Below the pieces are notes generated by a model, which was not told the origin of the DNA, searched no databases, and saw nothing but the letters and a program-made list of their open reading frames with translations. Made by a program: the position numbers and the translations under genes. A stretch of 42,905 bases of DNA from Patescibacteria group bacterium. Its GTDB lineage: Bacteria; Patescibacteriota; Minisyncoccia; Phycocordibacterales; Zambryskibacteraceae. How positions within the stretch are numbered: position 1 is the stretch's first letter; every line of letters starts with the position of its first letter. Positions 6,506-29,381 of the stretch are shown here, in pieces. The stretch lies in contig JAZKAE010000023.1 in NCBI GenBank assembly GCA_040389345.1, positions 1 to 42,905 of the forward strand, read 5' to 3'.

Positions 6506-7720
6506 TTAAGGCAAAAATTGCGAGATCCATTCGCCGATCTTTGAAATAAATGTCTTGCCGCCTTTGGTGATCTTGTCTATCTGAGAAGGGCCGATCGATG
6601 TGAGGTCGTTACCAGCATTCAAGCCGAGGACAGCGAGGCCGTAGGCTGTCGCCCACGAAGAATCCTTGGTCTTCTCTTTTTCTACACCCGGTTTCTCTTC
6701 TCCGAAATGCACATCTCCGAGATGGGCAGGGAGTTTGAGAGACGTTTCTGCAAAGTTCCTAATGTTATTCAAATTCGACCCTCCGCCAGTGATCACTACT
6801 CCGGCAGGCAGGAGCGCGTTTCGGCCGATCCGTTTGAGGTGTCCCTCGATAAGTTCGAAGCAGTCCGAAAGCCGGGCGTGGATGATATCATCCAGCTTCT
6901 TCTTCGAATAGACCGCATTAGTGATGGCCCCGAGTTTGATCGACTCAGCTTCTTCAAGCCCTACCTTTAGCCCGAGGGCGATGTCGTTCGTGATATCTGT
7001 GCCTCCGATAGGGAAGACCTCAAGGGATATGGGGCTTGAGTTCTCATAGACGACCATGGACAAGGTTTCCGAGCCGATGTTGATGAGCACGCAGCCGGCC
7101 TTCTTTTGTTTTTTTGAAAGAGTGACGAACGAGGCGGCGATCGGCGCGGCGACGACATCGGTCACTTCGATGTTTACATCTTCGATCGTCTTGATCAGGT
7201 CTTGGATGTGGTGCTCAAGGCACATGATAAAGAGAACCTTTACATCGAGCTTTTGCGCCTTGAGTCCCTGGACACGGCCCCAGACCACTTTGCCGTCGGC
7301 TTTGTGTTCCACGGGGATCGTGTTGATGATCTTTTTATTTAAAACGACCGCATGGGGGATCGCGGTCTCTGCAGCTTCGGTCGCCTTGTCTATATCCAAG
7401 GGAGTGATCTCAAGGTCGGCGCGGGAGACGATCGTTGAACCCGTGGCAGTCACGCCCGAAAGTCCGATCCCTCCGACTGACGCATAGGCTCGCTTTACTT
7501 GGACGCCAGCAACCTTTTCTGCTTGTCTAACCGCCTGGAGGAGCGAGCGTGCGGCTTCAGCTTGGTTCACAATATAGCCTTCATGCACGCCCTTGGACTC
7601 GCTCATGCCTGTCCCGATGATCTTGGATTGGACGCGCCCATTCACCACAGTTTCCTCGGCGATAACTACCCTCGTCGCAGAGGTGCCGATGTCTATACCA
7701 GTAGTGATGTGACGAGCCAT
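6506..7720 (-). CDS. ftsA: Cell division protein FtsA
   Basis: Actin-fold N-terminus GIDIGTSATRVVIAE, later GGTDITNDIA and VITGGGSNL. Start placed at MARHITTG (ATG 7720); the longer track ORF overlaps ybeY. Confidence 0.9.
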   Translation of the reverse strand: MARHITTGIDIGTSATRVVIAEETVVNGRVQSKIIGTGMSESKGVHEGYIVNQAEAARSLLQAVRQAEKVAGVQVKRAYASVGGIGLSGVTATGSTIVSRADLEITPLDIDKATEAAETAIPHAVVLNKKIINTIPVEHKADGKVVWGRVQGLKAQKLDVKVLFIMCLEHHIQDLIKTIEDVNIEVTDVVAAPIAASFVTLSKKQKKAGCVLINIGSETLSMVVYENSSPISLEVFPIGGTDITNDIALGLKVGLEEAESIKLGAITNAVYSKKKLDDIIHARLSDCFELIEGHLKRIGRNALLPAGVVITGGGSNLNNIRNFAETSLKLPAHLGDVHFGEEKPGVEKEKTKDSSWATAYGLAVLGLNAGNDLTSIGPSQIDKITKGGKTFISKIGEWISQFLP

Positions 7721-7772
7721 AAAGATAAATAGAAAAAAACTTGAGAAACAAAATACCAGAGGCGAACAAAAA

Positions 7773-8135
7773 CTAGACGTTGAATTTCTTGCGGAACTTT
7801 TGTTCTGCTTTTTCCATTGTAGCCCCATGTTCCATTCCTTTCAAATGAAGAAGACCGTGGACAAAGAGAAATCCGACCTCGGGCCCAGCCAATTTTAGAT
7901 GTATGAAAATTTCTCCGCTATCTTTTGTGAGTGGGAAGGAGAGCACGTTCGTCGGCTTATCCTTGCCTCGATAGGCGAGATTGAGCCTGTGGGAAAGCGC
8001 ATCTCCGCAGAGTACGAGCGAAAGCTCGTATGATCTCCCAAGGATCGCATCTTTTATTTCTTCAAAAGGAATACCCCGCAAAGAGCGGGGCGAAGTCCTG
8101 GTAGTATTTTTGATGGAAAAGGTATCGCTCTTCAC
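7773..8135 (-). CDS. ybeY: rRNA maturation endoribonuclease YbeY
   Basis: Zinc motif HGLLHLKGMEH. Confidence 0.85.
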   Translation of the reverse strand: MKSDTFSIKNTTRTSPRSLRGIPFEEIKDAILGRSYELSLVLCGDALSHRLNLAYRGKDKPTNVLSFPLTKDSGEIFIHLKLAGPEVGFLFVHGLLHLKGMEHGATMEKAEQKFRKKFNV

Positions 8136-18960: not shown

Positions 18961-19737
18961 CTAAGTGAGCGAAAGGGCTTGGCGCCGACCGAGTATATAG
19001 GCGATGCGCGCATTCAGGGGTTTCTTTAACAGAGTGATGAGAGTGAATCGGACAGGAAAGGTGACGTCCCCGATAGTGCAGGTGATATGCATGGGATACA
19101 CACCCTTTGCCCATGAGGTGGGGCGCAGCTTGAGCTTCTGAAGCCCTTCGATAAATGAGGCATCTTCACCCAAGAGTTCGTTGACCCTCTCCCATCCAAT
19201 CTGCACTGCTGTTTCTTCCCGGCGGCCGACCATTCGACAGGGCTTTGCGCCAAACTTCTTCTCGAAAGCGGTCACAATCGAAAGATCTACGAGGTAGATC
19301 CCTTTGATGTGGCTTGAGAGAAACTGGTACATGTCCCCCTCGTTCTTGATAGAACGGATAAGTGAATACTGGCTCGTCTTTGGACTAAATCCGCGGGGGC
19401 GGGGCTGGCCCGCTTTGAACCTCTCTGTGCTTTGATAATAGGCAAGAGAGTACAGCGAGTACTCGAGAGGGAAGGGCGGGTCTTCTTCATACTCCCGTAT
19501 CTGATGGGCTCTGATCTCGAGTGAGTTCACATCGCCTCGACTCTTGGACTCTACCCTGATCTGAAGATCCAGTGAGGACATGTCTCCCCAGGCAGGATAG
19601 CCACGCGGGGTTGGATCGCATTCCAGGATCTGCGTCATAAGGTGCTGGAAGAAATTTCCAACCATCCCCTGAGTGTCGAGGCCGCGAGAACGCATCCAGA
19701 CACGCCGAGCTTTCGTCCACTGAATTGGCGATGTCAT
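18961..19737 (-). CDS. Putative PD-(D/E)xK-fold nuclease
   Basis: GGAGAA lies upstream of ATG 19737. WGDMSSLDLQIRVESKSRG fits D...ExK. No further family recognised. Confidence 0.4.
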   Translation of the reverse strand: MTSPIQWTKARRVWMRSRGLDTQGMVGNFFQHLMTQILECDPTPRGYPAWGDMSSLDLQIRVESKSRGDVNSLEIRAHQIREYEEDPPFPLEYSLYSLAYYQSTERFKAGQPRPRGFSPKTSQYSLIRSIKNEGDMYQFLSSHIKGIYLVDLSIVTAFEKKFGAKPCRMVGRREETAVQIGWERVNELLGEDASFIEGLQKLKLRPTSWAKGVYPMHITCTIGDVTFPVRFTLITLLKKPLNARIAYILGRRQALSLT

Positions 19738-19869
19738 AATTCTCCATCTGTGAAGGTTCAAGATTCTAAAAAGATTATAGATTGGTCGAGAAGGGGTGCA
19801 TAGTAGACAGGTCAGTTCTGACACATATAATCTCACCAGACTAGACTGGACCTTAACTTTGGTGACCAT

Positions 19870-21000
19870 ATGGCATCAGTGCGCTATGTCATTGCCCATG
19901 ATCGAGCTGAGTGGGTTGTGCGAACCCTCATCGACTCCTGGAAGCAGAAACTTCCACCCTTCGACCACGCTGAACCTGTGCCAGGACGATTGCCCAAAAC
20001 ACTTGACCCAGGGAGCGTCCAACACGCTATCTGGCTCATGGTCGGTCTCCTCTATATGAGAGGCAGGATCGACAGTGCGCAGGCTTTCCTCAGGCTTTGC
20101 AACGTGTACGACGAACATCCTTGGATGTTTGACGTGAGCACATTTTCTGGCGTTTTGAGCGAAGAAGTAAGGCTCGAAATGCATGAAATCCTGAAAAAGA
20201 ACGGGCTTGGATTCAATGTCCGAGAGACTGTTCGATTCTGGGACTTCAACCTGAAGAAGATAGGAAGGTTCTGGGAAGGAAATCCGCTCCAGATCTTTGA
20301 GGCGGCAGAGAATTACCAGGAGCTTTGCAGAATTTTCATGATAGGCAAAGGTGACCCCGACCTCTCCACTGGATTCATGGGGCTTCGCGAGAAAATGGTG
20401 AGTATGTACCTCTACTTTCTCATTAATGCAAAGCTTACAAGTCCGATGATGCATCCAGGCCCGGTTGATACACACAACATCCGAGTGCTCGCCTCAACTG
20501 AAGCAGTGCGAGCTGTTGTCATGGGAGAGGGGACGCGCTACGAATTCTATCAAGTGTCTCCGGTGATCCGAGAAGTATATCGTCTGTACTGCAAGACAGT
20601 GGATGATGTCCTCGACCTTGCGAATGCGTTGTGGTATTTGTCCCGGGACTTCTGCTCACGGAGCCAAGGCAATGCTTCAACAACGGGAGGGTATCGAGGT
20701 CGAGCCACTGAAGTAACCGCTAAGCGGATCAGCTGGACACCAAGCAAAACAGAAGTGTACAACTCGACCTGTGGGCTATGTCCGGTTGAAGAAGTGTGCC
20801 GGTGGAGTCTGCCCTCGGCTCGCCAGTACAATCAAGGGTATCTGGAGATCCGAAGTGCTCGTCCAAAGCCCCATGTTCATCAGGAGAATCTTCTTGAGGT
20901 GCCTCGCACTCTTACGAGTCGTGGCCCGAAACCAGTTTCCCCCAGCTGGTCAAGCATAGAAGAGTTCAAGCACATGCACCAAAAAACATTGAGTGAGTAG
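19870..21000 (+). CDS. HhH-GPD (endonuclease III-like) DNA glycosylase homologue with Fe-S cluster cysteines and an N-terminal extension
   Basis: GFMGLREKMVSMYL compares with the LPGVGRKTA HhH motif, with the Lys retained. GPVDTHNIRVL compares with VDTHVFRV, with the Asp retained. C-terminal CGLCPVEEVC is C-x2-C-x5-C, with a fourth Cys upstream (DFCSRS). Confidence 0.6.
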   Translation: MASVRYVIAHDRAEWVVRTLIDSWKQKLPPFDHAEPVPGRLPKTLDPGSVQHAIWLMVGLLYMRGRIDSAQAFLRLCNVYDEHPWMFDVSTFSGVLSEEVRLEMHEILKKNGLGFNVRETVRFWDFNLKKIGRFWEGNPLQIFEAAENYQELCRIFMIGKGDPDLSTGFMGLREKMVSMYLYFLINAKLTSPMMHPGPVDTHNIRVLASTEAVRAVVMGEGTRYEFYQVSPVIREVYRLYCKTVDDVLDLANALWYLSRDFCSRSQGNASTTGGYRGRATEVTAKRISWTPSKTEVYNSTCGLCPVEEVCRWSLPSARQYNQGYLEIRSARPKPHVHQENLLEVPRTLTSRGPKPVSPSWSSIEEFKHMHQKTLSE

Positions 21001-21023
21001 CCCGTATACTGTACGGGCTTTTT
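21000..21023 (+). terminator. Rho-independent terminator
   Basis: GCCCGTA-tactg-TACGGGC followed by TTTTT. Confidence 0.75.
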
Positions 21024-21034
21024 CTTTTTGCCTG

Positions 21035-21040
21035 TATAAT
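21035..21040 (+). promoter_or_regulatory. -10 box TATAAT, 6 nt upstream of ATG 21047
   Basis: Sequence reads cctgTATAATatttttATG, with no SD. Confidence 0.4.
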
Positions 21041-21046
21041 ATTTTT

Positions 21047-21580
21047 ATGTTCACCAATCCAAAACAGAATATCCTCGAGTTTGGATTTCTCCCCGGCCAA
21101 AAGGTTGCGGACCTCGGTGCTGGTGCCGGGCACTATACACACGCACTCTCTGTGGCGCTTGGCAAGGACGGCAGAGTTATTTCTGTTGACCTCGACAAGG
21201 ACCTGCTCGTTAAGGTGTATAAAGAGGGCAAGGCTGAAGGCAGGGACAATATCCGCTCTGTAGAAGGGGACGTCGAGGAGATAGGAGGCACAAAGATCGC
21301 TGATGAGACACTGGATGGAGCTGTGTTCGGCAACATTCTCTTCTTTTTGGAGGATAAGGCGAATGCTGTCCGAGAGGCAAAGCGCATAGTAAAAAAGGGC
21401 GGTCGGATCGGCGTGGTCGAATGGGCGGATTCCTCATACCTTGCTCGCATCCAAACCGAAGGAGTGAATCATGTGCTCAAGGAGGATGATGTAAAAGCCT
21501 TGTTCAAAACAGAAGGTCTTGAGTTCGAACGATCGTTCCCAGCCGGTGAACATCACTACGGTCTTATCTTTAAAAAGTGA
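21047..21580 (+). CDS. Class I SAM-dependent methyltransferase (small-molecule/UbiE-like type)
   Basis: Motif I VADLGAGAGHYT, motif II ISVDLD and post-I acidic residues. No DNA-methyltransferase (D/N)PPY or PC motif. The start lies after the terminator at 21000-21023. Confidence 0.75.
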   Translation: MFTNPKQNILEFGFLPGQKVADLGAGAGHYTHALSVALGKDGRVISVDLDKDLLVKVYKEGKAEGRDNIRSVEGDVEEIGGTKIADETLDGAVFGNILFFLEDKANAVREAKRIVKKGGRIGVVEWADSSYLARIQTEGVNHVLKEDDVKALFKTEGLEFERSFPAGEHHYGLIFKK

Positions 21581-21594
21581 TAGTATAGATATAC

Positions 21595-22875
21595 ATGTCC
21601 AAGTTCCAGATCATCCTTCTTGCAGTCTTTGGAGTCTTCATTGTCGTCGCAGTCCTCTTGTTCTCTGTCTCAAAAGGATCGGGAACAGCAGCCGCGACGG
21701 TTACTGTGTGGGGCGATATGACCACCTACGATTTCTCTCTGCTTTTGAACAATGCGGGACTTACAGGGAACAATCAGCTCACCATCAAGTATGTTGAGAA
21801 GTCTAAAGACACCTTTGATACCGAATTCACCGAAGCTCTCGCCGAAGGTCGGGGGCCCGACCTTGTACTCTTGCCTCAATCGAAGATCTGGAAAGCGAGG
21901 AACAAGCTCCTCGTGATCCCTGGGTCATCTATCGCCCAGAAGGATTTTATAAATACATTCGCTGATGAAGCGGATCTCCTCATCTCAAGCGAAGGCGTAT
22001 ATGGGTTGCCTCTCTATATCGATCCACTCGTCCTCTATACGAATCGAGATCTACTTTCAAAGGCCTCATACGCCAATCCGCCCAAATATTGGGATGAGAT
22101 CTATGACTACGCACAGAAACTGACAGAAAAAGATACTGCAGGGAACATCTCGACAAGCGCCATCGCGCTCGGGGAATCTCGCAACATCCCAAACGCCAAG
22201 GATATCCTCGCTCTGCTCATGCTTCAGGCAGGAACTCCGATCACGAGTTTTCAAGGGGCTGATCTGCGCTCAGCGCTTGAAGATAATTTTAATTTACCTC
22301 TCTTGCCTTCGGCCGCTGCGCTTGACTTTTATACCCAATTCTCAAATTCTGCAAAGCCGTACTATACATGGAATAGATCCCTCCTGCCTGCCAATACCTC
22401 TTTCATCTCAGGTAAGTCTGCGTTCTATATAGGATATGCAAGCGAGCTTGCCCTTCTCAAGGCTAAAAACCCCACTCTTTCTATCGGTGTTGCTCCTGTC
22501 CCACAGTCGAGGGTCTCGGGCAAGGCTGTGACCTATGGCAAGCTCGGAGCTATCTCTGTAGTGAAAAGCGCTTCAAATCCGACTGCGGCGCTTCAGGCCG
22601 CACTTCTCCTCGTCTCTCAGAACTCAGCGAGCGAACTGGCAAAGATCAGCTCGCTCGCTCCTGCTCGGCGGGACCTCTTGTCTGAACGACAGACCGATCC
22701 TGCAAAAGCGGTATTCTATACAGCGGCACTTCAGTCAAAGGGGTGGATCGATCCAGATGATTCAAAGACGGGTGCGCTCTTCACTGATATGATCGACAGC
22801 GTCACCTCGGGACGGGCCCGAACGGATGAAGCGATATCAAACGCAAGCTTCGCCTTGGATTCTCTCACAAAATAA
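21595..22875 (+). CDS. Membrane-anchored extracellular solute-binding protein (family 1-like), orphan
   Basis: N-terminal helix IILLAVFGVFIVVAVLLF. VTVWGD, GRGPDLVLLP, GLPLYIDPLVLYTNRDLL and PPKYWDEIY resemble SBP_bac_1/8 hallmarks. Confidence 0.55.
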   Translation: MSKFQIILLAVFGVFIVVAVLLFSVSKGSGTAAATVTVWGDMTTYDFSLLLNNAGLTGNNQLTIKYVEKSKDTFDTEFTEALAEGRGPDLVLLPQSKIWKARNKLLVIPGSSIAQKDFINTFADEADLLISSEGVYGLPLYIDPLVLYTNRDLLSKASYANPPKYWDEIYDYAQKLTEKDTAGNISTSAIALGESRNIPNAKDILALLMLQAGTPITSFQGADLRSALEDNFNLPLLPSAAALDFYTQFSNSAKPYYTWNRSLLPANTSFISGKSAFYIGYASELALLKAKNPTLSIGVAPVPQSRVSGKAVTYGKLGAISVVKSASNPTAALQAALLLVSQNSASELAKISSLAPARRDLLSERQTDPAKAVFYTAALQSKGWIDPDDSKTGALFTDMIDSVTSGRARTDEAISNASFALDSLTK

Positions 22876-23252
22876 TGCGCACCCTTACTCACATTCTCGC
22901 CACCTTGATCCTCTTGATGGTATTCGTTCCTGTGCTTGCATTTGGAGCGAACACAAACCTCATTCCATGTGATGGGCCTAGTTGTAGTTTTAATGATCTG
23001 ATTTCACTTGCTGAGGCTGTTATCAACAACCTCATAATCTATGCCACTATCCTCACTGTGGCTATCCTTGTATATGCTGGATTCACACTCGTCACTTCTG
23101 GAGGAGATGAAGGGGCGCTTAAAAAAGCTAAAGGGATGTTCTGGTCAGTGGTGAAGGGGTATGTGTGGATACTCATCGCCTGGGTTCTCGTCTATACTAT
23201 TATGAACGCCTTGACGGACTCGACGTACAACTCGGTCCTCGGCCAACCATGA
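22875..23252 (+). CDS. VirB2/TrbC-like mini-membrane protein, paralogue 1
   Basis: The ATG overlaps the preceding stop (TAATG). Signal peptide ends VLAFGA. Two hydrophobic helices flank the loop SGGDEGALKKAKG. Confidence 0.6.
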   Translation: MRTLTHILATLILLMVFVPVLAFGANTNLIPCDGPSCSFNDLISLAEAVINNLIIYATILTVAILVYAGFTLVTSGGDEGALKKAKGMFWSVVKGYVWILIAWVLVYTIMNALTDSTYNSVLGQP

Positions 23253-23674
23253 TCATGAAAAAATATCTTCCTGGATTTTTTGCCTTCATATTTCTTTGTT
23301 TGTTTTCTGTATCATTAGTTCACGCTCAGATCCCTGGAAGTGGTACTGTTCCTAATAATCCTCCAGGGAGTGGCACAGTGCCTGGGAACGGCGTAAATGT
23401 AAATAAAACTCTCACTAATCCTTTTAAGTTCGGTAATTCACTTATTGATCTCTTTAATGCCATTCTAAAGAATATTGTATTGCCGATCGGCGGGGTGGTG
23501 ATCATCTTGGCCTTCATTTATTCAGGATTCCTCTATGTCACTGCTCAGGGAGATGAAAAGAAGATTGGCACGGCCCATCGGGCATTCCTCTATACAGCGA
23601 TCGGAGCAGCTATTCTTCTTGGAGCCGAAGCGATCTCCTTGGTCATATCCAATACTATCGGTCAGCTCCAATGA
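23249..23674 (+). CDS. VirB2/TrbC-like mini-membrane protein, paralogue 2
   Basis: ATGA stop/start overlap. Signal peptide ends SLVHA. PGSGTVP occurs twice. Helix-loop (AQGDEKK)-helix core. Confidence 0.6.
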   Translation: MIMKKYLPGFFAFIFLCLFSVSLVHAQIPGSGTVPNNPPGSGTVPGNGVNVNKTLTNPFKFGNSLIDLFNAILKNIVLPIGGVVIILAFIYSGFLYVTAQGDEKKIGTAHRAFLYTAIGAAILLGAEAISLVISNTIGQLQ

Positions 23675-23997
23675 GGTATATCTTTTTCTTGATCCTTGTC
23701 CCCATATTTGCTCATGCTTTTCCTGGAGATCTGCGGGGAGTAGTAGGGTTGTTCATGGAGCTCATAAATGCGGTGATCCCTATCCTCATGAGCTTGGCAC
23801 TTCTCTTTTTCTTGTGGGGAATTGCAAACTTCATCCGCAATGCCGCCGACACCAAAGCCCATGCAGACGGCAGACAAATGATGATCTGGGCGGTGGTGGC
23901 ACTCTTTGTGATGATCTCGTATTATGCGATCATTCAAGCTGCCCAGGGGGATGTGTTCGGTGTGTCGTTCGGACAGCCGCGGTTGCCTGAAAAATAG
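23671..23997 (+). CDS. VirB2/TrbC-like mini-membrane protein, paralogue 3
   Basis: ATGA overlap. Signal peptide ends IFAHA. Core LALLFFLWGIANFIRNAADTKAH...ALFVMISYYAII. Confidence 0.6.
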   Translation: MRYIFFLILVPIFAHAFPGDLRGVVGLFMELINAVIPILMSLALLFFLWGIANFIRNAADTKAHADGRQMMIWAVVALFVMISYYAIIQAAQGDVFGVSFGQPRLPEK

Positions 23998-24008
23998 AAC
24001 TTATAATT

Positions 24009-24428
24009 ATGAAAAAAACACTTACACTCACTCTCATACTCGTCACACCTCTTGCTGCATCCGCCCAACAAAAATTTGGAGGACTGCTTTCTCTTATCCA
24101 TGGGGTGGGGAATATTGTACAGGCGCTTATCCCCATTGTGGCCGGTCTCGCGCTTCTCTATTTCTTCTGGGGGCTTGCTACATTTATCCGCAGTGCGGGG
24201 GATGAGAAAAAGCACGCCGATGGTATCAATATCATGAAGTACGGTCTCATTGCGCTCTTTGTGATGGTGTCTGTCTGGGGGATCGTTGGTTTTATTCAAG
24301 GAGAACTTGGACTTCCTAGAACCACAAGCGGTAATCCATCTTTTGTTGGAGGAGGATCAACGAACGGTGGTGCGTTCGGCGGAGCTGATCCAGGTTGCGG
24401 AGCAGGAGTTGATGATATCCCTTGTTAA
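24009..24428 (+). CDS. VirB2/TrbC-like mini-membrane protein, paralogue 4, with Gly-rich C-terminal tail
   Basis: Signal peptide ends LAASA. Core LALLYFFWGLATFIRSAGDEKKH...ALFVMVSVWGIVGF. Tail GGGSTNGGAFGGADPGCGAGVDDIPC. Confidence 0.6.
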   Translation: MKKTLTLTLILVTPLAASAQQKFGGLLSLIHGVGNIVQALIPIVAGLALLYFFWGLATFIRSAGDEKKHADGINIMKYGLIALFVMVSVWGIVGFIQGELGLPRTTSGNPSFVGGGSTNGGAFGGADPGCGAGVDDIPC

Positions 24429-24505
24429 TCCACATCTGCCTAGCAATTTCCTCGGATGAGGGTATGATTAATCTGTTACCCCGTATTTCGGGGACATTAA
24501 AAATA

Positions 24506-24883
24506 ATGAAATCCAATACGTTAATGAAAAAGACCTTACTTGGTGCCCTTGCTTTCGCTCCAGTTCTCGCATTCGCGCAGAACAACAACCCAACTCTCGG
24601 AGGCATCTTCACCCTTATGACCAATGTGAAGAGACTTGTTGACCTCGCGCTTCCACTCGTCGTCGGCCTCGCTCTCCTCGGATTCTTCTGGGGTCTCATG
24701 AAGTTCATCTTTGCTGCAGGGGATGAGGACAAGCGCAAAGAAGCTCGCCAGATCATGATCTACGGTGTTATCGCACTCTTCGTGATGGTCGCTGTCTGGG
24801 GACTCGTCGCCTTCGTCGGTAACGCACTCGGCATCTCGGTCGGACAGGACAGCGGACACATCCCTACTGTTCAGGGTCTCTAA
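24506..24883 (+). CDS. VirB2/TrbC-like mini-membrane protein, paralogue 5
   Basis: Signal peptide ends VLAFA. Core LALLGFFWGLMKFIFAAGDEDKRK...ALFVMVAVWGLVAF. An alternative start is at 24524 (MKKTLL). Confidence 0.6.
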   Translation: MKSNTLMKKTLLGALAFAPVLAFAQNNNPTLGGIFTLMTNVKRLVDLALPLVVGLALLGFFWGLMKFIFAAGDEDKRKEARQIMIYGVIALFVMVAVWGLVAFVGNALGISVGQDSGHIPTVQGL

Positions 24884-24895
24884 GATCTTTCTTTC

Positions 24896-25183
24896 GTGGC
24901 GGCAGTACAACTTTCCATCGCTCCATTCTTGAACAAGGTTAACACCTTCATTCTGAATCCGCTTATTGGGCTCCTCTTTGCGGTTGCTCTCTGCATCTTC
25001 ATCTACGGAATTGTCATGTTCATAAAGGATGCGGCTGATGCGAAAGGTCGCGAGAAGGGAAAAAAGAGCATCATGTATGGATTGGTTGGAATGTTCATCA
25101 TGTTCTCGGCGTACGGATTGGTTCGTATCATCCTTAATACGTTCCAATTGCAGACTCCTCCATACATCGACAAAAAGCTCTAG
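24896..25183 (+). CDS. VirB2/TrbC-like mini-membrane protein, paralogue 6 (no signal peptide, GTG start, in frame with paralogue 5)
   Basis: Core LLFAVALCIFIYGIVMFIKDAADAKGREKGKK...GMFIMFSAYGLV. No SD. Only 4 sense codons separate it from the TAA of paralogue 5 in the same frame. Confidence 0.45.
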   Translation: MAAVQLSIAPFLNKVNTFILNPLIGLLFAVALCIFIYGIVMFIKDAADAKGREKGKKSIMYGLVGMFIMFSAYGLVRIILNTFQLQTPPYIDKKL

Positions 25184-25213
25184 AAAAAAGCTCCGCAAGC
25201 GCGGGGCTTTTTT
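25184..25213. terminator. Bidirectional rho-independent terminator
   Basis: AAAAAA-GCTCCGC-aagc-GCGGGGC-TTTTTT, between convergent genes. Confidence 0.75.
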
Positions 25214-25263: not shown

Positions 25264-25998
25264 TCACGGATCAGTACAACGGTTCTTGCACAGGTACACC
25301 ATGATCAGCTGGTCCTCGTCGGGAGACTTGAAGGCGTATACCCGAGAGTATCCAAACTTGGCATCGTGGTCTGGGCGGATGGTGTCTGTCTTCACATCCG
25401 TCTTGACCACCGTTCGAACATTCAAGTTCGAAGGCCAAATAGCTACCTGATACCCGGCGTACTTGGATGGAACACGCCAAGGCCTCGTGAATTCTCCCTT
25501 CGTGGCTGTGAACCCAACGCTGTCGCGCTCGGGAACCGGTGGTAGTGGGGGATGGAGCTTCAGGTACGCCGCCTGCTCCACCCGCTCCTTCTCGGCGACT
25601 TCCTTGCCATGCCGCATCGCCTTGGAGCCGACATTCGAGACGAACAGAATGACGAAAGCGAGGACTGGAAGCCATGTCCACGTCTTCTCATCTGCCGGCC
25701 AAAGTATGAAGAGTGCGAGCCCAAAGGCTGCAAGCCATACATACCAGCTCGGCTTCAGAAAACCGATGGCGTCCGGCCAGGAAAAGAAAGCGATGACGAG
25801 GAAGATGAACACCGCGATCGTGCCGGTGATCAAGCGCCCCTGGTGATCCTTGATGTTATCCTTGCACTTCTCCCAAAATGTTTTGGTTGGTCCAGGGGCG
25901 GTGCCCGTCGACGCGGTTGAGGCGGCGGGTGGTGATGCGGACACCGTAGATGTTGGGCGCGTGGATTTTGGGCGGGATGGACGCGGATTCGTAGCCAT
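25264..25998 (-). CDS. Polytopic membrane protein with Pro/Ser/Thr-rich N-terminus and C-terminal beta-rich soluble domain (NfeD-like architecture?)
   Basis: GGAGAT lies upstream of ATG 25998, with its own promoter. Three to four hydrophobic helices are followed by an ~80-aa domain. The track ORF start at 26112 lies upstream of the promoter. Confidence 0.55.
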   Translation of the reverse strand: MATNPRPSRPKSTRPTSTVSASPPAASTASTGTAPGPTKTFWEKCKDNIKDHQGRLITGTIAVFIFLVIAFFSWPDAIGFLKPSWYVWLAAFGLALFILWPADEKTWTWLPVLAFVILFVSNVGSKAMRHGKEVAEKERVEQAAYLKLHPPLPPVPERDSVGFTATKGEFTRPWRVPSKYAGYQVAIWPSNLNVRTVVKTDVKTDTIRPDHDAKFGYSRVYAFKSPDEDQLIMVYLCKNRCTDP

Positions 25999-26038
25999 GT
26001 ACAATCTCCAATTGGATGTGTGATGAACTTCTGGAAGT

Positions 26039-26066
26039 ATTATATCATTTATATAAGTAAAGTCAA
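26039..26066 (-). promoter_or_regulatory. Promoter TTGACT-N16-TATAAT
   Basis: Minus strand reads TTGACTttacttatataaatgaTATAAT. Confidence 0.6.
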
Positions 26067-26074
26067 TATAGAAA

Positions 26075-26103
26075 ACCCCCCACTGTCTTTCAACAGTAGG
26101 GGT
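26075..26103 (-). terminator. Rho-independent terminator after the SPFH gene
   Basis: CCCC(t)ACTGT-loop-ACAGTGGGG followed by GGTTTTCT on the minus strand. Confidence 0.6.
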
Positions 26104-26108
26104 ATGGA

Positions 26109-27206
26109 TCATTTCACCTCTTTTCCAATCTCATCGAAGAGAGCCATGAGCTTTACTGCTCCGTCCGCTACGATGAGCTTGGGATTGGCGAATGCCACTT
26201 GGAGAACGTCCAGCCTCCGCGCCATGACGGCATGAGGATCCTTCATCTCCGTGGCAACCTTCTTGATCGCCTCCGCTTCCGCATTGCCCTTCACGGTGAT
26301 CGCATGTGCGTCGGCGTCAGCCTTGAGACGGATCTCTTGAGCTTCGGCTTCTGCCTGGCTGATCTTTTCCTCGCGCTTCTTCAAAGCCACCGCAGCGTCA
26401 GACATGGCTTCGTTGACACGACGGCCGGGGAAGAGATTAACGATAGTGGTGTCGTCGATGACCACCCCGAGCGGCTTGCCATGCTTGGCAACCATCTCCT
26501 CAGTCTTCGAGTTCTTCGTGTGACTGAGAAGAAGGTCCAACTCCTTTTCCCCCACGAATTCCTCGAGAAGCGCTTGTATGTAGCCGCTGATCTCTTCCTT
26601 CACCCGCAGACTTTCTGCGAGCGTCGTTTTCGTGAGGATACTCTGAAGCAGAGACTCTTCCATGTCGCGAAGCCAACCGAAGACCTTCTCGATGTCACCA
26701 TCGGCGTTTTGGATGAATTGGAAGAGCTTTCCCTTCACGAGATGGATCTTGATCGTGAAGCTAGCCTCTGAGGTGAGCCGCAGGCTGAGCGGGTCCGCCA
26801 TGATCGCCTTGTAGCGTGGCGTGTCATCACGTTCGATATCCGCAAGCTTGAGTGTGGGTCCGTCCTTGATCTCATCCTCGGTCGGCTGCCAGCTGTAGAA
26901 CAGCGCTTGGTCCGCCGGGGCGTGGGTGATATGGATCGGGGTGACCTGCCATCCTTCGAGCGGCAGATCATCGTAGCGCTGAACCTCTTCGGGTTCTCCT
27001 GGGAATTGCCGTTGCTCGGCTACTGTCGAGAACCGGCGAATTTTTTGGAAAAAGCGCCAGACAAGATGTGGTCCACTACCTTCTTCACGACTTGGCTCGC
27101 CGAGAGTAGAGATCGCTCCGACCTCATTGGCCTCGAGGATATTGATCGAGGAAATGAAGTAGAGCACGAGCAGAACGAGTATACCAACGGGGATCAACCA
27201 CCACAA
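26109..27206 (-). CDS. SPFH/band-7 (stomatin/prohibitin-like) membrane protein, divergent
   Basis: TTG start with AGGAG 5 nt upstream. N-terminal helix WWLIPVGILVLLVLYF. Central SPFH-like region, then an Ala/Glu-rich coiled coil (KISQAEAEAQEIRLKADADAHAITVKGNAEAEAIKK). Confidence 0.65.
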   Translation of the reverse strand: MWWLIPVGILVLLVLYFISSINILEANEVGAISTLGEPSREEGSGPHLVWRFFQKIRRFSTVAEQRQFPGEPEEVQRYDDLPLEGWQVTPIHITHAPADQALFYSWQPTEDEIKDGPTLKLADIERDDTPRYKAIMADPLSLRLTSEASFTIKIHLVKGKLFQFIQNADGDIEKVFGWLRDMEESLLQSILTKTTLAESLRVKEEISGYIQALLEEFVGEKELDLLLSHTKNSKTEEMVAKHGKPLGVVIDDTTIVNLFPGRRVNEAMSDAAVALKKREEKISQAEAEAQEIRLKADADAHAITVKGNAEAEAIKKVATEMKDPHAVMARRLDVLQVAFANPKLIVADGAVKLMALFDEIGKEVK

Positions 27207-27294: not shown

Positions 27295-27301
27295 ATTCGT
27301 G

Positions 27302-27382
27302 TGCCGGGGAGAGGACTTGAACCTCCACACCTTGCGGTACCAGTTCCTAAAACTGGCGTGTCTACCATTTCACCACCCCGGC
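27302..27382 (-). tRNA. tRNA-Leu (anticodon TAG)
   Basis: Acceptor GCCGGGG/CCCCGGC, anticodon stem CCAGT/ACTGG with loop TTTAGGA, long variable arm, T-arm GGAGG-TTCAAGT-CCTCT. Confidence 0.88.
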
Positions 27383-27509
27383 AATGGGAGCATAGTAACA
27401 CAGCTTCTGTGGTCACGAATAGTTTCCTCGCCGCCGCTCAGAAACTTTCTCGACCCCGGCTCGGTATCTCGCGTACTCACTCGATATACCTGCGCCCCGC
27501 ACCAAGTAC

Positions 27510-27531
27510 AAAAAATCCCCAGCAGAGGGGA
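27510..27531 (-). terminator. Rho-independent terminator after tRNA-Lys
   Basis: TCCCC-tctgct-GGGGA followed by TTTTTT on the minus strand. Confidence 0.6.
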
Positions 27532-27542
27532 TTATTTTGTCT

Positions 27543-27618
27543 TGGTGCGCCCGGTAGGAATCGAACCTACGACCATCTCCTTAAGAGGGAGCTGCTCTAC
27601 CGACTGAGCTACGGGCGC
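27543..27618 (-). tRNA. tRNA-Lys (anticodon CTT), CCA encoded
   Basis: GCGCCCG acceptor, D-arm GCTC..GAGC, anticodon loop CTCTTAA, T-arm GTAGG-TTCGATT-CCTAC, 3' CCA. Confidence 0.88.
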
Positions 27619-27690
27619 AAACTTGGAACAAACAAAACTATATCTAAAATTAGCTTAATATTCAACGTTTACACTGAGTGGGTCGAAGTG

Positions 27691-27761
27691 TGCGGGTAGA
27701 GAGAATCGAACTCTCGTCTCAGCCTTGGGAAGGCCGCATTCTACCACTAAACCATACCCGC
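27691..27761 (-). tRNA. tRNA-Gly (anticodon CCC)
   Basis: GCGGGTA acceptor, anticodon stem CGGCC/GGCTG with loop TTCCCAA, T-loop TTCGATT. Confidence 0.88.
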
Positions 27762-27987: not shown

Positions 27988-28515
27988 TTATTTATTGACC
28001 ACCGCATACGCTCTTCCGCCCCAGCCATAGAAGCTGTAGAGAGTATTTCCATCTACCCATTTAGTATTGGAGTTCTGAATATCATATCTCGATGAATTCT
28101 CAAGTTTTGCTACCAGTGCATACATGACCCCATCACTCCAGTACGCATACGTGCCCGCTCCTGGGGCAGTTGACCATGGCCAATCGCACACATCGACAGG
28201 ATCATGCGATTGAGTGCCGATGTACCCATTGCTCCACGTATAGACTCCGCTGTCAGGAATCCAGTTTGTTCCTTGCCAGCAATCCGCATACCAAGCTGCT
28301 CCACTGTTTGGGAAATGTCCAGTCGTATCCGCATAGAGCCTGAGGGCTGTGACCATCTGCCTCAAGGTCTGGATCCTCTGAGTATCTCGTGCCTTTGAGC
28401 GTGCGCTTTGCAGGCTCGACATGATGATCGAGGAGAGAAGACTGATGATCGAAATGACCACCAGAAGTTCTATAAGGGTGAAGCCTCTCTTGTATTTTTT
28501 TGAAGAAACTTTCAT
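27988..28515 (-). CDS. Type IV pilin / pseudopilin with prepilin N-terminal cleavage-methylation motif
   Basis: KRG/FTLIELLVVISIISLL, with Gly-1, Phe+1 and Glu+5. Confidence 0.88.
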   Translation of the reverse strand: MKVSSKKYKRGFTLIELLVVISIISLLSSIIMSSLQSARSKARDTQRIQTLRQMVTALRLYADTTGHFPNSGAAWYADCWQGTNWIPDSGVYTWSNGYIGTQSHDPVDVCDWPWSTAPGAGTYAYWSDGVMYALVAKLENSSRYDIQNSNTKWVDGNTLYSFYGWGGRAYAVVNK

Positions 28516-28879: not shown

Positions 28880-28953
28880 GACCTAGTAGCCAAGTGGTAA
28901 GGCAAAGCTCTGCAAAAGCTTCATCGGCGGTCCGATTCCGCCCTAGGTCTCCA
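28880..28953 (+). tRNA. tRNA-Cys (anticodon GCA), CCA encoded, atypical T-loop TCCGATT
   Basis: Acceptor GACCTAG/CTAGGTC, discriminator T, anticodon stem AAGCT/AGCTT with loop CTGCAAA, T-arm GGCGG-TCCGATT-CCGCC. Confidence 0.85.
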
Positions 28954-28972
28954 TGCTCCGGCGGAGCATATT

Positions 28973-29054
28973 GCCCGGGTGGCGGAATTGGTATACGCGC
29001 ACGACTTAAAATCGTGTCTCGAAAGAGATGTGGGATCGTTGCCCACCCCGGGCA
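28973..29054 (+). tRNA. tRNA-Leu (anticodon TAA), atypical T-loop ATCGTTG
   Basis: Acceptor GCCCGGG/CCCGGGC, anticodon stem CACGA/TCGTG with loop CTTAAAA, variable arm TCTC-gaaa-GAGA, T-arm GTGGG-ATCGTTG-CCCAC. Confidence 0.85.
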
Positions 29055-29381
29055 CTAGAGGTCTTTGGTTATCTCGTCCAGTCTCTGACGGTTTCGTTCT
29101 CCATAGTCTACTCTCCACGTGAGCTGGGGGACTATGCCGATACGCGATTTCTCCCTCACGTATCCATGGAATTCTCCACCTTTCCTCTGCAAGAACTTGA
29201 GGGCTGTGTCCTCGGCACTGTCTGGAAGCGTCGTGAAAAAGAGGTTAGCGGCTTTGCCTGATTCTGCAAGTTCGACTCGAGTGATGGTGATGAGCGAGGC
29301 AGGAGTCGATTCTCTGAGGACAAAGTCCGCTGCCAGTTTTCGTATGATCTCCTCCATCTTTTCTTTTTTGAGTTCTTTCAT
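29055..29381 (-). CDS. rbfA: Ribosome-binding factor A
   Basis: Size, position downstream of infB and the segment ITITRVELAESGKAANLFF...P.LTWRVD are typical of RbfA. Confidence 0.8.
   Translation of the reverse strand: MKELKKEKMEEIIRKLAADFVLRESTPASLITITRVELAESGKAANLFFTTLPDSAEDTALKFLQRKGGEFHGYVREKSRIGIVPQLTWRVDYGERNRQRLDEITKDL

Follow-up and report, generated by a model that had tools for sequence, protein, structure and literature searches.

What does an operon do that joins an orphan solute-binding protein (SBP) to six small pilin-like membrane proteins on a chromosome segment without secretion machinery? The operon occupies positions 21047 to 25183 (+ strand) of a 42,905-nt window, which appears to be the whole contig of a Parcubacteria/Paceibacteria chromosome and to which all coordinates refer. 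An earlier sequence-only reading had described eight open reading frames (ORFs) on one strand, and the ORF list and translations agree: a methyltransferase gene is followed by the gene for the SBP and by six paralogous genes, p1 to p6. We consider it moderately probable that the operon encodes the pilin set of a Patescibacteria type IV secretion system (T4SS), made up of six nonredundant VirB2-like subunits that have become detached from virB4 and coupled to the SBP. Patescibacteria (the candidate phyla radiation, CPR) account for much of bacterial diversity, and their way of life seems to be attachment to host cells. In the one species tested, epibiotic growth requires their unusual T4SS with its pilin arrays. 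No class is better represented than Paceibacteria in the largest survey so far.

The proposal that the six paralogues are homologous to VirB2/TrbC-type pilins held up in profile searches. T4SS_pilin (PF18895) was the top Pfam family for every one of them, and four exceeded its gathering score of 26.6 bits: p2 (23249 to 23674, 139 to 141 aa; 28.0 bits, E = 2e-6), p4 (24009 to 24428, 139 aa; 38.2 bits, E = 1.5e-9), p5 (24524 to 24883, 119 aa counted from the conserved start and 125 aa if translation begins at the ATG at 24506; 45.0 bits, E = 1.2e-11, the best family match among the six), and p6 (24896 to 25183, 95 aa with a GTG start; 30.8 bits, E = 3e-7). The E values for p1 (22875 to 23252, 125 aa) and p3 (23671 to 23997, 108 aa) were 2e-3 and 8e-4; all six genes are on the + strand. 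Six independent, consecutive matches to one family, kept in 80 genomes (see below), cannot be explained by chance. For TrbC/VirB2 (PF04956), p2 gave the best match of the six (26.4 bits, E = 8e-6, with a cutoff of 27.9 bits) and p6 matched at E = 2e-3.

These sub- to near-threshold matches, together with small size, a signal peptide, a two-helix hairpin, and a short charged loop, are what the proteins share with VirB2/TrbC/TraA of diderm bacteria. They differ in that no VirB3-VirB11 genes are adjacent, the host is assumed to be monoderm, one major pilin plus VirB5 is replaced by six distinct subunits, there is no sign of cyclization or acetylation genes, and no structural match was significant. 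Five of the six also gave weak matches (E = 2e-7 to 4e-3) to NF045849 of NCBIfam, the "Mbov_0395 family pilin-like conjugal transfer protein" of mycoplasma integrative and conjugative elements (ICEs), all below the 40-bit family cutoff. This recalls the MPF-FATA systems, within which the Patescibacteria VirB4 clade is reported to be nested (Quiñonero-Coronel et al. 2025, PMC12102498). Unlike those systems, the window has no ICE context, relaxase, or coupling protein.

Hydropathy supported the shared plan that had been read by eye, a signal peptide (absent in the last protein) and a two-helix hairpin, and the loop and helix strings quoted for it were all found in the translations. Proteins p1 to p5 each have an N-terminal signal-like segment and two hydrophobic helices, and p6 has the two helices only; small size and a short charged loop complete the VirB2/TrbC-type pattern, in which the mature protein has about 70 to 120 aa and from which p6 departs in lacking the signal peptide. 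Because the p6 start lies 13 nt past the p5 stop, there is no room for one. The absent signal peptide brought up p6 as an analogue of VirB3 or PrgI, which we rejected because neither family matched it even at E ≤ 1. AXA-type cleavage sites, read by eye, are VHA/Q, AHA/F, ASA/Q, and AFA/Q, where the slash marks the cut. An AlphaFold2 model of p5, built from a 37-sequence alignment (predicted local distance difference test score [pLDDT], 76), has helices at residues 2 to 18, 25 to 63, and 68 to 101 and a 4-residue hairpin loop. Alignments of orthologues placed conservation mainly in the two helices and variation in the signal peptides and exposed N- and C-terminal tails, in keeping with the earlier observation that divergence falls mainly in segments predicted to lie outside. 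Within this variation, p1 orthologues retain a Cys-x4-Cys pair (C32 and C37; 22965 to 22985) in the exposed mature N terminus, so a disulfide is likely there; the mature N terminus of p2 is long, variable, and Pro/Gly rich and leads into a conserved NPF motif; and p4 ends in a Gly-rich C-terminal tail.

We located relatives by scanning one genome per species, which yielded 80 loci (SBP identity, 36 to 80%) from Zambryski-, Kaiser-, Taylor-, Wolfe-, and Campbellbacteria and other Paceibacteria. The SBP alone has hundreds of full-length homologues at 54 to 80% identity, annotated as Parcubacteria, Zambryskibacteria, or Minisyncoccota. Pilins were called in the relatives with a hidden Markov model (HMM) iterated from p1 to p6 over all ORFs of the loci, which recovers all positions. 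In every locus with at least 300 nt of downstream sequence, the SBP stop codon is separated by no more than a few bases from the first of the pilin-like ORFs. The array has exactly six genes in 51 sources (the window included) and four to seven in the others, with lower counts in the most divergent lineages, and spans 2.0 to 2.6 kb in most loci. No pilin-like ORFs were found outside the array in the ±10-kb flanks of the 80 loci. A reverse lookup from a p5 homologue and lookups from two SBP homologues landed in the same arrangement of gyrA, SBP, and pilin genes.

The six genes are also orthologous by position. At positions 1, 2, 5, and 6, the same window paralogue was the best match in all 50 related six-gene loci, and positions 3 and 4 fall inside a subgroup formed by p3, p4, and p5. 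Such positional orthology points to a fixed set of subunits rather than a variation cassette, and it strengthens the earlier idea of a multisubunit structure. In a cassette, interchangeable major pilins would diversify to evade or match hosts, as proposed for the VirB2 copies of Bartonella and Anaplasma, and this reading has been offered for Patescibacteria pilin arrays, which were seen as a possible aid in adapting to different hosts (PMC12102498). The low identity of the paralogues (p2 to p6 are 19 to 28% identical to p1, the most divergent of them) and the concentration of divergence in exposed tails would fit it. The tandem VirB2 copies of Bartonella and Anaplasma are likewise diverged (described via PMC12102498). 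In contrast to the variable copy number and order that a cassette implies, the modal count here is six, with one-to-one correspondence at four positions; the p5 orthologues found are 53 to 89% identical across lineages; and p6 lacks a signal peptide in the window, with similarly short position 6 ORFs (81 to 107 aa) in the eight relatives listed. Unlike the Bartonella and Anaplasma copies, those here are conserved in order across genera and include one without a signal peptide, a pattern of specialized subunits. Each of the six PF18895 pilins of Southlakia epibionticum is, moreover, individually essential (Wang et al. 2023, PMC10633639). We regard the cassette as largely refuted and very improbable for this locus; the published reading in terms of host range variation misfits the positional orthology seen here.

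The second component of the operon, the SBP (21595 to 22875, +; 426 aa), is a family 1 protein, as had been suggested. It matched SBP_bac_8 (PF13416; E = 2.4e-19, 70.6 bits) and SBP_bac_1 (PF01547; E = 4.4e-17, 63.5 bits) well above the respective cutoffs of 27 and 26 bits, and its AlphaFold2 model (pLDDT, 88; predicted template modeling score [pTM], 0.84) consists of a helix at residues 3 to 27, a flexible linker, and a two-lobe, MalE-like domain from residue 34. The best structural match in the PDB was 2zyo, a cyclo/maltodextrin-binding protein (Foldseek E = 6.5e-22; template modeling [TM] scores, 0.74/0.81); the best sequence-profile match had an E value of 4e-13. The top PDB matches comprised binders of cyclo/maltodextrin, manno-oligosaccharides, trehalose/maltose, and sophoro-oligosaccharides, as well as MalE, with TM scores of 0.65 to 0.8 and 15 to 20% identity. 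Many W, Y, F, D, E, N, Q, and R residues are invariant among the orthologues, and these, with aromatics typical of sugar binding, are indirectly consistent with a ligand bound in the cleft between the lobes.

Hydropathy gave the SBP a single N-terminal hydrophobic segment, and a lipobox Cys is absent from the protein. Across 82 sequences, residues 1 to 15 have a mean conservation of 0.70, the level of the best-conserved core segments, and within the anchor (residues 1 to 27; 21595 to 21675), which carries the motif MSKFQ..LL..FG, F4, Q5, and F12 are at least 95% conserved. Because a cleaved signal peptide would not be so constrained, we infer that the helix stays on the protein and touches a conserved partner within or next to the membrane. 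Modification of this N terminus by the adjacent cytoplasmic methyltransferase is conceivable, as an idea only. A further binding protein, SEML1_0634 of S. epibionticum, adjoins secG and tRNAs in the gene table of that organism, with no adjacent permease listed (PMC10633639); orphan binding proteins may be of wider importance in CPR epibionts.

The SBP and pilin genes form a single transcription unit. An intrinsic terminator of the upstream gene (9-bp stem and T-run; −14.7 kcal/mol, z = −4.9, equaled by 0 of 200 shuffles) lies at 20999 to 21029 (+), and a second strong one, in which an A-tract and a T-tract flank a 13-bp stem (−19.3 kcal/mol, z = −4.6, 0 of 200 shuffles), follows at 25184 to 25213 and could be bidirectional. 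Direct reading of the letters confirmed the previously reported overlaps of stop and start codons: TAATG at 22873 to 22877, where the p1 start overlaps the SBP stop, and ATGA at 23249 to 23252 and 23671 to 23674. An alternative p2 start, the ATG at 23255 (MKKY...), is possible and would abolish one of these overlaps. Based on the terminators at both ends and the overlapping or closely spaced stop and start codons, including those of the SBP and p1, we conclude that 21047 to 25183 is one operon.

The gyrA gene lies upstream on the same strand in all 73 loci with enough sequence, and this constancy, together with the wide retention of several other housekeeping neighbors, raises the prospect that the SBP and pilins are unrelated neighbors held together by a frozen gene order around gyrA. 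The SBP would then serve a distant ATP-binding cassette (ABC) sugar importer or act as a general glycan-binding surface protein, for which its ordinary MalE-like fold and invariant aromatics would be suitable. Orphan SBPs that use distant permeases are known, such as PrgZ, which uses Opp in Enterococcus. Against such an accidental association, the genes downstream of the array are not conserved among relatives, yet SBP-p1 adjacency is 100%. The end of the SBP gene overlaps or adjoins the start of p1 with no terminator between them, and the sole internal promoter-like element precedes p5. The constraint on the SBP anchor helix is also unusual, and no recurrent ABC permease family was found in the ±10-kb flanks of the 80 loci. 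We therefore judge a purely positional association to be quite unlikely.

No secretion or transport machinery was found close to the operon, as the sequence-only reading had maintained. Pfam scans of the other window ORFs (those of at least 120 aa that are not nested in a longer ORF) identified GyrA, ClpB, TopA, IF-2, RelA/SpoT, S1, FtsZ, FtsA, ParB, Pth, signal peptidase, MiaA, and thioredoxin reductase, and no VirB4, VirB6, VirD4, relaxase, ABC permease, or ABC ATPase in the 42.9-kb window. There are nine tRNAs, and Rfam found tRNAs only. A mobile-element reading was rejected because the window has an even GC content along its length and is a chromosomal stretch of housekeeping genes. For the relatives, we clustered flank ORFs of at least 400 aa in 85 loci (the 80 related genomes, the window, and duplicates) and scanned the ten longest unassigned ones against Pfam. 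These encode LeuRS, PurL, SMC, RecG, ABC exporters, a polymerase X-like protein, and two proteins without a family; no VirB4-like protein was among these ten from the ±10-kb flanks of the 80 loci. No unassigned flank family of at least 400 aa recurs in more than nine loci. The only recurrent polytopic flank family, found in 16 loci about 8 kb downstream, was itself unscanned and matches the place and size of an M50 peptidase gene in locus L003.

The grouping that defines a T4SS locus, VirB4 with mating-pair formation genes within about 20 genes, was thus absent from the window and the related loci scanned, and the cognate permease and ATPase expected beside an ABC importer receptor were absent from the window, with no recurrent permease family in the 80 flanks. 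Nor does the array always stand next to a complete VirB4/VirD4 T4SS, the arrangement that the sequence-only reading had named as the mark of an ordinary conjugation locus: no VirB4-like gene was found within 10 kb in the 80 relatives. The accompanying view that this is not a conjugation system is in line with the literature, in which a relaxase was not found in most Patescibacteria T4SSs.

Published data do not support the further notion of a module with no tie to secretion machinery. VirB4 occurs in 2,417 of 3,035 Patescibacteria genomes (PMC12102498), and Table S1 of that study lists it as present, elsewhere in the genome, in six of eight genomes that carry the module. In S. epibionticum, six consecutive PF18895 genes (SEML1_0014 to SEML1_0019) lie beside genes for a VirB6-like protein, PrgI, and VirB4 (PMC10633639). 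That array resembles the one described here in having exactly six members, tight packing, and a wider gap before a late member.

These data also bear on whether the operon might encode a self-contained, T4SS-independent envelope complex, an SBP-dependent device for uptake or attachment that has recruited the VirB2-like proteins as its membrane or stalk portion. With two helices in each of the six subunits, there would be 12 transmembrane helices, the same number as in the membrane part of a typical ABC importer. A complex of this kind would also agree with the universal SBP-pilin linkage, the translational coupling of the SBP to p1, the fixed order of the six subunits, the conserved membrane anchor, the failure to find an ABC partner nearby, the absence of the module from the vicinity of virB4, and its occurrence in two metagenome-assembled genomes (MAGs) listed without VirB4. 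It is at odds with the homology, which is to T4SS pilins, with the five cleavable signal peptides and exposed variable tails, as pilins should have, with the equal number of PF18895 genes embedded in the S. epibionticum T4SS cluster, and with the listing of VirB4 in six of eight module genomes. We know of no transporter built of VirB2-like hairpins, and we find this reading unlikely.

Several observations limit the case for assigning the operon to a T4SS coupled to the SBP. The PF18895 matches of p1 (18.5 bits) and p3 (19.8 bits) fall below the gathering score. The p5 model had no match in the PDB at E ≤ 0.001 with Foldseek (best E = 1.9), a comparison in which hairpins are poorly discriminated; the conjugation pilus of Aeropyrum pernix (8dfu) ranked 20th (E = 5.7; TM scores, 0.44/0.58). 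The pilin family profile also matched no solved pilin among PDB sequences. Since structural comparison with solved conjugative pilins (F, T, pED208, and archaeal Ced/Ted pili) gave no significant match, an outcome that we do not count as negative, the pilin assignment is based on sequence profiles and topology. Similarly, because no T4SS gene was found within 10 kb in any of the 80 loci, the tie to VirB4 is based on homology and literature tables. The two module-bearing MAGs listed without VirB4 (PMC12102498, Table S1) are assemblies of 384 and 444 kb, small enough that VirB4 may simply be missing from them. In the part of the PMC12102498 tables available, the Paceibacteria VirB4 cluster often carries its own single PF18895 gene, which makes the need for a separate hexad less obvious. 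Finally, the constant adjacency of gyrA means that gene order in this region is conserved in general, so synteny by itself is no proof that the SBP and pilins cooperate.

One junction in the array differs from the others. The sequence-only reading had noted a hairpin and a 77-nt gap before the fifth paralogue. The hairpin and the long gap were both confirmed, and the length is more likely 95 nt (24429 to 24523, +), because the conserved p5 start is ATGAAAAAG at 24524, which is also the start of the called 119-aa product P0121. This junction measures at least 60 nt in 46 of 51 loci (median, 102 nt), compared with medians of −1 to 12 nt for the other four junctions. In the window, it contains a −35-like hexamer, a spacer of about 17 nt, TATGAT (24463 to 24468), a 5-bp hairpin, CCCCG-TATTT-CGGGG (24479 to 24493), and then ATTAAAAATAA. 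Comparison across relatives showed this element to be conserved: a −35-like TTGnnn lies about 17 nt 5′ of a −10 (TATCAT, TATTAT, TATGAT, or TATAAT), and a 5-bp inverted repeat follows 6 to 10 nt after the −10 and precedes ATTAAAAATAA (e.g., L057, 12775 to 12862). The stem ATACC...GGTAT is shared by 24 loci; GTACC...GGTAC and TGTCC...GGACA occur in one locus each, and the window has CCCCG...CGGGG. A strict search for this layout recovered 27 of 48 loci compared with 0.56 in shuffles, an excess that mostly reflects shared ancestry; the four different stems keep their pairing.

The hairpin was also considered as a terminator or attenuator, and this was rejected because the stem lacks a T-run on its 3′ side and the gap as a whole folds no better than shuffles (z = −0.32). 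The element instead resembles an internal promoter whose transcript would start with a 5′ stem-loop, or alternatively an operator. If so, p5 and p6 are probably expressed separately from p1 to p4 and at a higher level. An internal promoter at this position suggests that p5 (and p6) are abundant structural subunits and that p1 to p4 are minor or specialized ones, which makes p5 a candidate for the major subunit.

In the T4SS pilin set that we favor, p1 to p6 would be inserted into the membrane by Sec. Signal peptidase would trim five of them at the AXA-like sites and leave p6 uncleaved, and a T4SS core encoded elsewhere on the chromosome (VirB4, TrsD, VirB3/PrgI, and VirB6) would extract or assemble the pilins. 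During the history of this Paceibacteria clade, the pilin genes would have parted from virB4 and become fixed behind gyrA together with the MalE-fold SBP. The SBP and p1 to p4 would be expressed from the operon promoter, and p5 and p6 additionally from the internal one. A distinct, order-conserved set of six points to a heteromeric structure with specialized subunits, a reading supported by S. epibionticum, in which each of the six pilins is essential. The SBP itself would act as an accessory of the pilus apparatus (a glycan-binding receptor, an adhesin, or a sensor), held in a membrane complex by its N-terminal anchor, and not as an ABC importer receptor. This role is suggested by its invariant linkage to the array, the overlap of its stop with the p1 start, the conserved anchor, and the lack of a transporter partner nearby.

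There are partial parallels among known systems for a binding protein that is tied to a T4SS. Enterococcal conjugative plasmids encode the pheromone-binding proteins PrgZ and TraC, and in Agrobacterium ChvE signals to VirA. Like the SBP here, these have an SBP fold without permease genes of their own, and by analogy the SBP might also capture an external ligand and control or target a T4SS. PrgZ differs in being a family 5 peptide-binding lipoprotein that feeds the Opp permease, whereas the protein described here is of the family 1 sugar type. ChvE is periplasmic and addresses a histidine kinase, whereas this SBP is anchored by a conserved transmembrane helix and cotranslated with pilins, and neither a kinase nor a permease was identified as its partner. 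Purely by analogy, a fixed, order-conserved set of subunits, of which one is likely abundant and several are made at low levels, recalls the major and minor pilins of type IV pili and type II secretion systems, which belong to an unrelated protein family and have an N-methylation motif that is absent from p1 to p6.

In its strongest form, the association of the SBP with the six VirB2-like proteins would constitute a single apparatus in which the invariant N-terminal transmembrane segment ties a glycan receptor physically to a pilus or stalk of the T4SS type, and a saccharide of the host cell surface targets, triggers, or gates pilus assembly; a radical version would be a VirB4-independent, SBP-dependent conduit for the uptake of molecules from the host. 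We put this forward as a speculative and unlikely proposal. If true, it would represent an undescribed coupling of ligand recognition to a VirB2-type structure and a candidate host recognition device for the Paceibacteria, a large, uncultivated group. Since the pilins are predicted always to be coexpressed with a sugar-type SBP whose anchor is under selection, the SBP is, more generally, a candidate receptor or sensor for host glycans.

Pilin arrays as such are an already described feature of Patescibacteria. VirB2-like pilins were reported in 1,948 VirB4-positive assemblies, in only 1,135 of which they lie near virB4; 441 arrays of 2 to 11 pilin genes with about 25% identity were most common in Microgenomatia and Saccharimonadia, and the Paceibacteria virB4 region was reported to be near dnaA and dnaN (PMC12102498). 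With its chromosomal tandem of PF18895 genes, low mutual identity, and lack of a relaxase, the window array fits this definition. It departs from the published arrays, which were analyzed near virB4, in that the hexad lies more than 10 kb from any VirB4-like gene found in the 80 genomes and shares an operon behind gyrA with the SBP (ancestrally also with the methyltransferase). In the available portion of Table S3 of PMC12102498, annotations by PF18895 only are limited to genes flagged as near virB4, and small remote clusters of VirB2-like genes, seen in several genomes about 100 genes from virB4 and detected by other profiles only, are flagged "VirB4 proximity: No" without comment (e.g., genes 60, 61, and 63 of GCA_001000265.1, in which VirB4 is gene 160). 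As far as this portion of the table goes, the remote clusters may be partial detections of a similar remote module.

A full-text literature search returned no paper that ties an SBP to Patescibacteria pilin arrays, and the terms "solute-binding" and "substrate-binding" never occur in PMC12102498. Four features were absent from the literature checked: the constant pairing with an orphan SBP, the site beside gyrA and remote from virB4, the orthology of the six subunits by position, and the conserved internal promoter-like element with its hairpin. As the module shows, surveys confined to the neighborhood of virB4 miss a conserved part of the system. The pilins in this part form a fixed set of six specialized subunits rather than a variable repertoire, and the conserved promoter-like element and hairpin predict differential expression of p5/p6 and p1 to p4.

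The first gene of the operon encodes a UbiE/ArsM-like, class I S-adenosylmethionine-dependent methyltransferase of 177 aa (21047 to 21580, +), which matched Methyltransf_11 in Pfam (E = 5e-13) and gave only subthreshold matches in NCBIfam. It is preceded by an extended −10-like promoter element read from the sequence, TGTATAAT (21033 to 21040, +), which ends 7 nt 5′ of the ATG at 21047, and a Shine-Dalgarno-like sequence is not evident. With so short a distance, the operon mRNA may be leaderless. The methyltransferase gene lies directly 5′ of the SBP gene in 30 of 31 loci with SBP identity below 50% and in 20 of 48 in the closer clade, a distribution suggesting an ancestral but dispensable gene that a Zambryskibacteria-like subgroup has lost.

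Between gyrA and the methyltransferase gene, the window has two ORFs back to back, one of 302 aa (18961 to 19869, −) and one of 376 aa (19870 to 21000, +). Each was found in one other locus only (BLASTP, E = 1e-5), and in most relatives gyrA abuts the methyltransferase or SBP gene, so the pair looks like a lineage-specific insertion. These two, a 282-aa ORF downstream of the operon, and other neighboring ORFs had no match in Pfam, PHROGs, or PADLOC; the 376- and 282-aa ORFs also had none in NCBIfam.

Other genes in the window include an FtsA/PilM-like gene at 6506 to 7828 and, 2.8 kb downstream of the array, a type IV pilin gene (27988 to 28515, −; 175 aa) with an N-terminal methylation motif (PF07963, E = 6e-9) and with tRNA genes on both sides (27301 to 27761 and 28880 to 29055). 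The 282-aa ORF (25264 to 26112, −) is convergent to the operon, and its product has a Pro/Ser/Thr-rich N terminus and, after it, hydrophobic segments. The ORF shares 4 nt with the gene for an SPFH/Band-7 protein (26109 to 27206, −). At the same position, loci L001 and L003 carry an unannotated gene and then a gene of Band-7 size, with low sequence similarity.

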